From NCBI GenBank assembly GCA_000996355.1, contig LCAH01000003.1, positions 4,228-68,227 of the forward strand: DNA of 64,000 nt, written 5' to 3'. The notes beneath the pieces were generated by a model, which was not told the DNA's origin, did no database searches, and worked only from the letters and a program-made list of their open reading frames with translations. How positions within the stretch are numbered: position 1 is the first letter of the stretch; each line of letters begins with the position of its first letter. The position numbers were made by a program, and so were the translations under genes. Below are positions 19,258 to 21,861 of the stretch, in pieces. Source of the DNA: Candidatus Uhrbacteria bacterium GW2011_GWC2_41_11 (GTDB taxonomy: Bacteria > Patescibacteriota > Patescibacteriia > UBA9934 > GWF2-40-263).

Positions 19258-19287
19258 TTGACACGTTTTTTATGGTTGGTATAGAAT
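19258..19287 (+). promoter_or_regulatory. sigma70-type promoter for the 16S rRNA transcript
   Basis: TTGACA, a 16-17 nt spacer, then TATAGAAT, about 210 nt upstream of mature 16S. Confidence 0.55.
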
Positions 19288-19498
19288 GCCCGCGCGTTCA
19301 TATAAGTCTTCCAACAATTTGGAGCTTGTATGACAGCTGTTCGTTCACAACTAAATAAGGACTTAAATGACGAACACAATTGTCAGTTGTGCGATTGTAA
19401 CGTCTATTCTTCGAACAACCAATAAACGGTACTCAAAAAAACAATAGAGAGCCTAAATTCACAGAGTTTTATTCTTTCGTAAGAAAGAATAAAATTAT

Positions 19499-21000
19499 TT
19501 ATCTGAGAGTTTGATCCTGGCTCAGGATGAACGCTGGCGGCGTGTCTAAGGCATGCAAGTCGAGCGCACCTATATGCGATTACATCAAGAATAGGTGAGC
19601 GGCAAACGGGAGCGTAACACCTTGGTAATCTACCTCGAGGTCGTGAATAGCCCTTGGAAACGAGGAGTAATACACGATGGTTAAAAGAGGTCTTAAGACT
19701 TTTTTTATAAAGCTTTGGCGCCACGAGATGAACCTAGGTCCTATCAGCTTGTTGGTGGGGTAATGGCCCACCAAGGCTATGACGGGTAGCGGGTGTGAGA
19801 GCACGACCCGCCTCACTGGGACTGAGACACTGCCCAGACACCTACGGGTGGCTGCAGTCAAGAATATTCCTCAATGCGCGAAAGCGTGAAGGAGCGACGC
19901 CGCGTGCCGGATGAAGGCCTTCGGGTTGTAAACGGCTTTTTTCAGGGACGAACAAATGACGGTACCTGGAGAATAAGAGGTTGCTAACTCTGTGCCAGCA
20001 GCAGCGGTAATACAGAGACCTCGAGCGTTATCCGGATTTATTGGGCGTAAAGCGTCCGCAGGCTGTTTGATAAGTCACATGTCAAATCTCCGGGCTCAAC
20101 CTGGATACTGCGTGTGATACTGTCAGACTAGAGGCCGGGAGAGGCATACGGAATTGCCGGTGTAGCGGTAAAATGCGTTAATATCGGCAAGAACACCAAA
20201 GGCGAAAGCAGTATGCTGGAACGGTTCTGACGCTCAGGGACGAAAGCGTGGGGAGCGAATGGGATTAGATACCCCAGTAGTCCACGCCCTAAACGATGAA
20301 TGCTAGATATTGGAAGTATCGACCCTTCCAGTGTCGTTGAACCAAGCTAACGCGTTAAGCATTCCGCCTGGGGAGTACGACCGCAAGGTTAAAACTCAAA
20401 GGAATAGACGGGGACCCGCACAAGCGGTGGAGCATGTGGTTTAATTCGACGGTAAGCGTGGAACCTTACCTGGGCTTGAAAGATAGCTGCAAGCCGCCTG
20501 AAAAGGTGGCCGCCTTCGAGGGTGCTATCTAGGTGCTGCATGGTCGTCGTCAGCTCGTGCCGTGAGGTGTACCCTTAAGTGGGGTAACGAGCGCAACCCT
20601 CGTCCTGTGTTATTTTTCCACAGGAGACTGCCCTCGCAAGAGGGAGGAAGGCGAGGATGACGTCAGATCAGCATGGCCCTTACGTCCAGGGCGACACACG
20701 TGCTACAATGGCCGGATACAATGGGTTGCCAAACCGCAAGGTGGAGCTAATCCTCAAAGCCGGCCCCAGTTCGGATTGAGGGCTGCAACTCGCCCTCATG
20801 AAGCCGGAATCGCTAGTAATGGCCGATCAGCCACGCGGCCGTGAATACGTTCTCGGGTCTTGTACTCACCGCCCGTCAAGTCAAGAGAGTTGGTAACACC
20901 CGAACGTCGCCGTAGGGCGGCGGAAGGTGGGATCAATGATAGGGACTAAGTCGTAACAAGGCATCCGTAGCGGAAGCTGTGGATGGATCACCTCCTTTCT
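19499..21000 (+). rRNA. rrs: 16S ribosomal RNA (~1.5 kb, no intron evident)
   Basis: 5' end ...gagagtttgatcctggctcag and 3' end ...ggatcacctccttt. Conserved 341, 515, 785, 1100 and 1400 regions are present, with several variant positions. Confidence 0.95.
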
Positions 21001-21240
21001 AGGGACATTGAGAAGTTTATCTTCTCCATTCTCGGTCGAGATGAGCCTCTTCGGAGACTAATCATTGTTACGAAGACGACGTTGCAATCGCACAACATGA
21101 CAAAATCGAAAAACTCCTCTGATTCGGGGAGTTTTTCTTTATCCAAATACTTGCCTTCTTTAAGAGAAATTGATACACTCATTGCACAAAAAATGGTTGA
21201 CCTCCCTCAATTTGAACACGTGGAAGGTCTAAAATTTTAC

Positions 21241-21317
21241 GGGCGTGTAGCTCAGGTGGTTAGAGCGCAACACTGATAATGTTGAGGTCCCTGGTTCGAG
21301 TCCAGGCACGCCCACCA
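21241..21317 (+). tRNA. tRNA-Ile (anticodon GAU), CCA encoded
   Basis: gggcgtgtagctcaggtggttagagcgcaacactGATaatgttgaggtccctggttcgagtccaggcacgcccacca. Confidence 0.9.
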
Positions 21318-21334
21318 CGAAACCAATAAATTTT

Positions 21335-21796
21335 ATGAATCTGACTTTCCTGGAAACATGTTTTCGTCTCATCCTTGCAACGATTTTGTGCGGGGTTATT
21401 GGATATGAACGTGAGTATCGGCACAAACCAGCAGGTATCCGAACAAACATGCTTGTGGGATTAGGGACAGCAACCATGACTATTGTTTCCATCGAAATTA
21501 CCCAATTTGCCGGACCATCAAATGTGATAGATATTTCTCGGATTGCGTCAACAATTCTCACTGGGATTGGTTTTATTGGAGCAGGAACTATCATCCATTC
21601 TCATGACGGGGTCAAAGGATTGACCACTGCGGCGAGCATTTGGGTGGTTGCCGCAATTGGATTGGCTGTGGGAATGGGATTTTATCTTCTTGCGAGTATC
21701 ACCACGATTCTAGCCTTGATCACATTAGCCGTGATCCGAAAATTCCCTATTTCGGAAGAAAAATCTGAAGGAAAAGAGGAAAAAATGCCTGGGTAG
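21335..21796 (+). CDS. mgtC: MgtC/SapB-family membrane protein
   Basis: GYEREYRHKPAGIRTNMLVGLG...ILTGIGFIGAGTII...GLTTAASIWVVAAIGLAVGMGFY matches the MgtC N-domain consensus. The 3' end overlaps tRNA-Phe by ~10 nt. No obvious SD. Confidence 0.65.
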   Translation: MNLTFLETCFRLILATILCGVIGYEREYRHKPAGIRTNMLVGLGTATMTIVSIEITQFAGPSNVIDISRIASTILTGIGFIGAGTIIHSHDGVKGLTTAASIWVVAAIGLAVGMGFYLLASITTILALITLAVIRKFPISEEKSEGKEEKMPG

Positions 21797-21861
21797 CTCA
21801 GTGGTAGAGCAGAGGACTGAAAATCCTCGTGTCGTCAGTTCAATTCTGACCCCAGGCACCA
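21787..21861 (+). tRNA. tRNA-Phe (anticodon GAA), CCA encoded
   Basis: gcctgggtagctcagtggtagagcagaggactGAAaatcctcgtgtcgtcagttcaattctgaccccaggcacca. Confidence 0.9.

Follow-up and report, generated by a model that had tools for sequence, protein, structure and literature searches.

In a 64,000-nt stretch of contig LCAH01000003.1 (the window), Candidatus Uhrbacteria bacterium GW2011_GWC2_41_11 carries a 16S rRNA gene followed by a short cassette in which mgtC, the gene for a small MgtC/SapB-family membrane protein, lies between the genes for tRNA-Ile(GAU) and tRNA-Phe(GAA). The 16S rRNA gene occupies positions 19499-20998 (+) and is full length without insertion (Rfam RF00177, 1436.4 bits, model positions 1-1533). 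A unique spacer of 242 nt separates it from tRNA-Ile(GAU) at 21241-21317 (+), and tRNA-Phe(GAA) is located at 21787-21861 (+). Both tRNA genes encode their CCA ends and were placed identically by ARAGORN and Rfam, with Rfam scores of 72.9 bits for tRNA-Ile and 73.1 bits for tRNA-Phe. The mgtC open reading frame (ORF) extends over 21335-21796 (+) and encodes 153 amino acids. Its ATG lies 17 nt past the CCA end of tRNA-Ile and its stop codon, TAG (21794-21796), falls inside tRNA-Phe, with 10 nt common to the end of the ORF and the start of the tRNA gene. All four genes are on one strand, and the spacings on the two sides of mgtC are 17 nt and -10 nt. The original prediction had placed the 16S gene, tRNA-Ile, a 153-residue ORF 17 nt further on and the overlap of its stop codon with tRNA-Phe at these same positions, and each of them was recovered there.

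The signals around these genes were predicted by folding and, for the promoter-like sites, by a scan for the sigma70 consensus; this organism belongs to the Candidate Phyla Radiation (CPR). The candidate promoter of the 16S gene, P1 (19258-19287, +), reads TTGACA-18-TAGAAT and matches 11 of the 12 consensus positions. A leader strand at 19381-19410 (+), with the core TTGTGCGATTGTAACGTC at 19387-19404, pairs with a trailer strand at 21071-21100 (+), with the core GACGTTGCAATCGCACAA at 21078-21095, in a duplex of -36.3 kcal/mol that is presumably the 16S processing stem. The trailer is followed by a terminator-like hairpin, T1 (21108-21143, +), which consists of a 12-bp stem at 21108-21137 and the run TCTTTAT. 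The stem has a folding free energy of -17 kcal/mol and a z-score of -5.5, and none of 200 shuffled sequences was as stable. A second promoter-like site, P2 (21151-21179, +), reads TTGCCT-17-TACACT, matches 8 of the 12 positions and lies about 61 nt before tRNA-Ile. Right after tRNA-Phe there is an A/U-rich terminator-like hairpin, T2 (21864-21898, +), of the form AAAAATACTG-tttaaag-CAGTGTTTTT with a T-rich tail, a free energy of -11.5 kcal/mol and a z-score of -3.7. The region 21000-21900 had been singled out earlier as the place to look for terminators, and T1 after the 16S gene and T2 after tRNA-Phe are the ones predicted in it.

The MgtC-family assignment of the ORF, made earlier from the translation, was confirmed by a profile search. 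The product matches the Pfam MgtC profile (PF02308) with E=1.1e-39 and 136 bits, the cut-off being 31.4, and residues 12-137 align with profile positions 1-118 of 121. The window protein shares the N-terminal hydrophobic domain of the MgtC/SapB/YhiD family over nearly the whole profile. Enterobacterial MgtC proteins have 215-231 residues and include a C-terminal soluble domain, whereas the window protein ends at residue 153 without it. Because this domain is absent, the protein scores below the cut-offs of the NCBIfam equivalogs for full-length MgtC, PRK15385/PRK09977 (79.8 against 255 and 123.3 against 214), and the NCBIfam match reaches only to about profile position 136. Over 47 homologues 18 residues are invariant, including those of the GIGFIGAG and GLTTAAS.W motifs, and hydrophobic segments are found at about residues 3-26, 39-55, 67-88 and 94-140. 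MgtC homologues of about 145 residues are common in Uhrbacteria and other CPR. An identical MgtC/SapB protein is on record for Candidatus Uhrbacteria bacterium GW2011_GWF2_41_16 (Patescibacteria/Parcubacteria group), and many groundwater metagenome contigs carry it. Across the lineages that have the cassette, the proportion of nonsynonymous differences (pN) is 0.16-0.34 versus 0.55-0.91 for synonymous differences (pS, mostly saturated). Since pN is far below pS, mgtC is a constrained protein-coding gene under purifying selection. A sequence search of the PDB returned no solved structural relative of the membrane domain. Near the window mgtC no mgtB or mgtR partner, long regulatory leader or known riboswitch, the M-box included, was found, and a permissive Rfam search of the tRNA-Ile-mgtC and 16S spacers in the window and five related loci returned no riboswitch, leader or small RNA, only sub-threshold noise.

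The start of mgtC had been described as lacking an obvious Shine-Dalgarno (SD) sequence. The absence was verified, but it does not set the gene apart, as SD-less starts are the norm here. An anti-SD duplex of -5 kcal/mol or better precedes 3 of 23 called genes, and the 20 genes without one include rpsP and rpoC; when ORF starts are assigned mechanically, such a duplex is seen for 9 of 50. The missing SD was considered as a sign of an untranslated or special ORF and was rejected, given that most genes here lack one. The mgtC initiation region is A/U-rich and unstructured (-4.2 kcal/mol, z-score +0.9). The 3' end of the 16S rRNA carries CCUCCU, though most genes have no SD, and many starts (for example at 17610, 21335 and 58688) have a U-rich motif of the type TTTTAT/ATTTT right before the ATG. 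A separate observation on decoding is a tRNA-Ile with the anticodon TAT (UAU) at 3311-3387 (-) of the window. Most bacteria read AUA with a CAU tRNA modified by TilS, and tRNA-Ile(UAU) suggests a TilS-independent route of AUA decoding in this organism.

The order tRNA-Ile(GAU)-mgtC-tRNA-Phe(GAA) is intact in eight further lineages, represented by the loci L091, L134, L135, L136, L137, L138, L139 and L140; L138 is from the same organism as L094 and L100 and was counted once. The 16S identity among these lineages and the window is 81-94%, and their MgtC proteins share 50-64% identity with the one in the window. In the relatives the gap from tRNA-Ile to the start codon ranges from 8 to 200 nt and the gap from the stop codon to tRNA-Phe from 5 to 189 nt. 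Close packing is seen on the first side in the window, L139 and L140 (8-17 nt to the ATG) and on the second side in the window, L135, L136 and L140 (-10 to 14 nt). In a neighbour-joining tree without bootstrap, the MgtC proteins of the cassettes and of a rearranged locus, L092, form one clade, and other CPR MgtC proteins encoded in ordinary protein operons (for example L141) branch apart from it. As a control, 80 mgtC loci from other phyla were inspected among the matches listed, and tRNA genes directly flank mgtC in one of them. This locus, L067, from a Gaiellales metagenome-assembled genome (4802-5807), has tRNA-Ser(GCT) 106 nt upstream and tRNA-Ser(CGA) 276 nt downstream of mgtC on the same strand, and it is an independent case of mgtC between two tRNA genes.

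The position of the 16S gene relative to the cassette is variable. It is directly upstream with a spacer of 200-370 nt in the window, L135, L138 and L139. In L091 it is upstream at a distance of 2.1 kb, with a reverse-strand ORF for a PEP-utiliser-domain protein between them, and in L134 it is upstream at 2.85 kb with four genes between. In L136 and L137 the 16S gene is convergent on the other strand, and in L140 there is no 16S gene within 5 kb. These arrangements bear on the idea that one transcript, started at the 16S promoter (19258), runs through the 16S gene, the spacer, tRNA-Ile, mgtC and tRNA-Phe to the last hairpin, which would make mgtC track rRNA synthesis. In the window this idea draws on the common strand of all the genes, on the place of tRNA-Ile after the 16S gene, which is the canonical position of a spacer tRNA, and on the region between 16S and tRNA-Ile, where the best promoter-like site scores 8 of 12 and the hairpin is A/U-rich, L138 and L136 having stronger, GC-rich ones. 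However, the 16S promoter cannot drive the cassette in five lineages, namely where the 16S gene is convergent (L136, L137) or absent (L140) or where other genes, opposite-strand ones among them, intervene (L091, L134).

The signals after the 16S gene likewise speak against a single transcript. The trailer box GACGTTGCAATC, which represents the invariant columns of the trailer strand, is kept after all nine 16S genes examined (window, L091, L092 and L134-L139). After this box, at 99-177 nt from the 16S 3' end, a hairpin with a T-run is present at the same place in 9 of 9 cases. In the window, L135, L138 and L139 this hairpin is followed immediately by a promoter-like site, whose position is much the same in all four. 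P2 of the window aligns column for column with TTGACC-17-TACACT in L138, and the corresponding sites are TTGACC-17-TATAAT in L135 and TTGACG-17-TAAAGT in L139. A site of the form TTGACC-17-TAnnnT also precedes tRNA-Ile in L136, L137 and L140, which have no 16S gene upstream, and L091 has TTGTCA-17-TATAGT before tRNA-Ile. A sigma70-like site scoring at least 9 of 12 was found before tRNA-Ile in eight of the nine lineages, the window with its 8 of 12 being the ninth. By this alignment P2 is the candidate positional homologue of the cassette promoter of the relatives. Two other sites in the window were tried as cassette promoters and set aside. A second TTGACC at 21207, 38 nt from tRNA-Ile (the distance is 37 nt in L138), has no -10 element at 16-18 nt, and a promoter inside tRNA-Ile that would use GATAAT of the anticodon loop as its -10 matches the -35 consensus at 2 of 6 positions only. 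A transcript common to 16S and mgtC is therefore considered rather unlikely.

Within the cassette the scans returned few signals. A promoter-like site of at least 9 of 12 between tRNA-Ile and tRNA-Phe was found in one of the nine lineages (L134, where it overlaps the mgtC start codon), none of the nine has one in the 200 nt before tRNA-Phe, and weak hairpin-plus-T matches inside the cassette number two (L135 and L140). Directly after tRNA-Phe a hairpin with a T-run is present in 9 of 9 lineages; six pass a strict scan and three are imperfect with T-runs. The motif scans of the nine lineages agree with one promoter upstream, one terminator downstream and none inside, all of them predictions, with the window promoter at 8 of 12. 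In the window the gaps of 17 nt and -10 nt leave too little room for separate signals around mgtC.

An alternative is that mgtC and tRNA-Phe are mere neighbours of tRNA-Ile, with unrecognised promoters of their own (for example in tRNA-Ile or in the 3' part of mgtC), and that neutral synteny beside the 16S gene, not co-transcription, holds the block together. A scan for the sigma70 consensus may miss the uncharacterised promoters of CPR, breakpoints have few places to fall in a segment of only about 620 nt, and the wider surroundings are partly syntenic, as S16-TrmD-KH upstream and tRNA-Pro/tRNA-Gly/RuvC downstream are shared by the window, L138 and L140. The rearranged locus L092, in which mgtC follows a terminated tRNA-Phe and has a promoter-like site of its own, also fits this alternative. 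Against it stand the gaps of 8-17 nt and -10 to 14 nt, which leave no intergenic room, and the lack of a promoter-like site of at least 9 of 12 in the 200 nt before tRNA-Phe. In addition, the flanks underwent at least five rearrangements, yet the block is unsplit in all nine lineages. Independent promoters for mgtC and tRNA-Phe are accordingly judged very unlikely.

Several smaller features of the related loci were recorded. At 490-1100 of L092 the order is tRNA-Phe, hairpin, promoter-like site and mgtC, with the 16S gene convergent downstream, and at 432-447 there is a remnant, CCTTTACGGCCCACCA, that resembles a collapsed tRNA-Ile (leader plus first and last bases). Partial copies of the first 12-13 nt of tRNA-Ile are found in L091 (4783-4795) and L134 (3638-3649). 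The copy in L091 lies about 14 nt past the -10 element of the promoter-like site and is followed by an insert of 68-76 nt and then by the complete tRNA-Ile. It looks as if a small insertion had entered the tRNA gene at its 5' end and duplicated the target site. According to the gene calls of L142 and L137, transposase genes of the IS200-like Y1 type (Pfam Y1_Tnp) are present in the window at 60938-61372 (-) and in L137 at 4844-5293. The one in L137 separates the cassette from the inverted 16S gene and is a possible agent of rearrangement. Right after the CCA of tRNA-Ile, L091 (4941-4977), L135 (1181-1215) and L136 (3914-3995) carry a conserved motif of the form CCTTCGCTC..hairpin..CTACGG.TGGCAGGCCA, which is absent from the window. 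It sits in strongly folded spacers (in L136, 87 nt with -43 kcal/mol), has no Rfam match and may be where processing occurs or may stabilise the mgtC mRNA at its 5' end. The spacer of L138 has a different, perfect hairpin of 19 bp, 3 nt before the ATG.

The locus could also be an artefact of metagenome assembly, mis-joined at the 16S gene or at tRNA-Ile, in which case the true genome would have linked 16S and 23S genes. rRNA and tRNA genes are classic points of mis-joining, several assemblies break in or near the 16S gene, and in two public assemblies, L003 and L009, sequence of a co-occurring relative is joined to that of this organism inside tRNA-Ile. Both match the window organism at 99.9% identity from tRNA-Ile on. 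The ENA scaffold L009 (join at about 1938) is identical to the L091 organism to the left of tRNA-Ile by blastn, and the ENA scaffold L003 ceases to match the window at that position; the join leaves a mismatched acceptor stem. The reading of L003 and L009 as a strain variant that differs in its upstream part was rejected, as blastn identifies them as assembly chimeras. In practical terms, public assemblies of these organisms can be chimeric at the conserved tRNA-Ile, as these two cases demonstrate. In the window, by contrast, the acceptor stem of tRNA-Ile is fully paired, there is no N, and the 242-nt spacer is contiguous with both the 16S gene and tRNA-Ile. An independent JGI assembly, L001, is identical over 3,623 nt leftwards from the mgtC start, a stretch that includes the whole 16S gene. 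The order S16-TrmD-KH-16S-cassette recurs in the distant relative L138, and 16S followed by the cassette is seen in L135 and L139 as well. A mis-join in the window is extremely improbable on these grounds.

The 16S gene of the window is not followed by a 23S gene. No large-subunit or 5S rRNA was found at the Rfam gathering score across the 64-kb window, and none in about 10 kb past its end (L143), where only protein genes and tRNA genes are present. The nearest possible 23S gene is thus more than 19.5 kb upstream or more than about 52 kb downstream of the 16S gene. A 23S gene just beyond a scaffolding gap, the case that the original prediction had named as fatal to its view, did not materialise, as the window contains no N and no 23S follows to about 10 kb past its end. 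Minus-strand genes downstream of the 16S gene include tRNA-Pro, RuvC, YebC and rpoC/rpoB, and no 23S follows the 16S gene at any related locus examined. The claim that rrs is unlinked from rrl here therefore stands. The further statement that neither 23S nor tRNA-Ala occurs downstream holds for 23S and fails for tRNA-Ala, since tRNA-Ala(CGC) is encoded at 58447-58522. This is not the canonical spacer tRNA-Ala(UGC), which, like 23S and 5S, was not found in the 64-kb window by Rfam and ARAGORN. The locus differs from a canonical rrn operon (16S, tRNA-Ile/tRNA-Ala, 23S, 5S) in that tRNA-Ile alone follows the 16S gene.

Unlinked rRNA genes are defined by more than 1500 bp between 16S and 23S in Brewer et al. 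and by more than 2000 bp with opposite-strand genes in Lui et al. The window has no 23S in the 1.5-2 kb after the 16S gene and has opposite-strand genes in between. Unlinked 16S and 23S genes were published as typical of CPR in 2021 (PMC8172020), Patescibacteria are listed among the clades with exclusively unlinked rRNA genes (Brewer et al.), and 16S and 23S are unlinked in 27 of 34 circularised CPR genomes, with tRNA and protein genes near the rRNA genes (Lui et al.). The split in the window is of the same kind, with 16S far from 23S and opposite-strand genes between, and it is one more ordinary case of what is already known for CPR and not a discovery. Unlike the arrangement predicted in the window, a terminator followed by a promoter between 16S and tRNA-Ile is not described in Brewer et al. 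or Lui et al., and no mention of MgtC was found in the CPR rRNA-operon literature searched.

The best explanation, with a probability of about 0.65, is that two separate stable-RNA units adjoin each other in a CPR genome with a split rRNA operon, the first being P1-16S-T1 and the second P2-tRNA-Ile-mgtC-tRNA-Phe-T2. The 16S gene and the tRNA-mgtC-tRNA block are most likely separate because T1 and P2 are predicted between them and because the cassette is intact where the 16S gene is inverted, displaced or absent. The spacing and the motifs support the placement of mgtC within a tRNA transcription unit; genes on the same strand with tight spacing, as expected of a mixed tRNA-mRNA operon, are what is found. 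Of the earlier proposal that mgtC belongs to the rRNA/tRNA transcription unit, the tRNA part is retained and the rRNA part is not, with T1 and then P2 lying between and the cassette surviving displacement of the 16S gene. In the first unit P1 would drive a stand-alone 16S gene, whose transcript would be processed at the leader/trailer stem and ended by T1, which resembles an intrinsic terminator. In the second unit P2 would drive a compact mixed operon of tRNA-Ile, mgtC and tRNA-Phe that ends at T2. The mgtC mRNA would form the spacer within a tRNA precursor, without a promoter or terminator of its own, and would be translated on the precursor or once tRNA-processing enzymes have cut it free. 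Its ends would be generated by a 3'-end nuclease, acting after the CCA of tRNA-Ile, and by ribonuclease P (RNase P), which would cut where tRNA-Phe begins. Like most genes here, mgtC would be translated from a start without an SD, in the open A/U-rich region.

Several points weigh against this explanation. All of the promoters and terminators are motif or folding predictions, P2 of the window scores just 8 of 12, and the second TTGACC (21207) lacks a properly spaced -10. The A/U-rich T1 of the window may leak, so that read-through from the 16S promoter contributes to cassette transcription. L092 shows that the order is not obligatory, as its tRNA-Phe has its own terminator-like hairpin and mgtC comes after a promoter-like site, and a block of about 620 nt could persist simply through having few internal breakpoints. 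A stop codon inside a tRNA gene, and hence a stop-less processed mRNA, looks costly, though it may be tolerated.

The overlap of mgtC with tRNA-Phe is confined to this species, and in eight of the nine lineages the ORF stops upstream of the tRNA gene. A 142-residue strain variant of this species, which also ends in ...EEKMPG, shares the overlap. Since the last 10 nt of the ORF belong to tRNA-Phe, a cut by RNase P at 21786/21787 would leave an mgtC mRNA without a stop codon, and full-length protein would come from the uncleaved precursor only. The overlap could be a piece of sloppiness that a compact genome tolerates, or it could restrict dosage. In a stronger form of this idea, mgtC would be a tRNA-punctuated mRNA without promoter, terminator or ribosome-binding site of its own, with both ends cut by tRNA-processing enzymes and with MgtC synthesis tied to stable-RNA output; competition between RNase P and termination would limit dosage and send stop-less mRNA to ribosome rescue. 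This form as a whole is regarded as unlikely. If it were true, a protein of a Mg2+/phosphate-homeostasis family would be coupled to tRNA and rRNA output, the largest Mg2+ and phosphate sink of the cell.

Mixed tRNA-mRNA operons are known from E. coli, where thrU-tyrU-glyT-thrT-tufB and metY-rimP-nusA-infB are examples. As proposed here, the protein gene in these operons shares promoter and terminator with the tRNA genes, and RNase P cuts at the 5' end of the tRNA. The cassette differs from them in that mgtC is sandwiched by two tRNA genes at spacings of 17 and -10 nt with its stop codon inside the downstream tRNA, and in that it is kept down to a 16S identity of 81%. In mitochondria, tRNA-processing enzymes free the mRNAs from the tRNAs that bound them directly, and cleavage leaves some of these mRNAs with an incomplete stop codon. 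Mitochondrial punctuation is genome-wide, whereas here a single gene is concerned and the stop codon is upstream of the tRNA in eight of nine lineages. No polyadenylation that would complete a stop codon is known here, unlike in mitochondria. Another parallel is the E. coli secG-leuU transcript (PMC2241853), in which RNase P separates mRNA from tRNA and this separation destabilises the mRNA. Like mgtC, secG is there a small membrane-protein gene upstream of a tRNA gene, and the terminator is Rho-independent. The tRNA-Ile-mgtC-tRNA-Phe cassette appears to be undescribed so far and to belong to the known class of mixed tRNA/mRNA operons.

The part worth recording is that the cassette is intact down to 81% 16S identity while its surroundings have been rearranged. 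Salmonella MgtC limits phosphate uptake and ATP, which prevents rRNA overproduction in Mg2+ starvation (PMC7980370). The placement of a short MgtC where it might be expressed in step with stable-RNA synthesis fits this link between MgtC, phosphate/ATP and rRNA overproduction and is a weak hint of such coupling, suggestive by association only. If the transcript is as predicted, an ultra-small genome here provides a clean natural example of a tRNA precursor that carries an mRNA within it. The locus would offer a concrete place to follow how CPR bacteria, in which most genes here are SD-less, express and process such transcripts.

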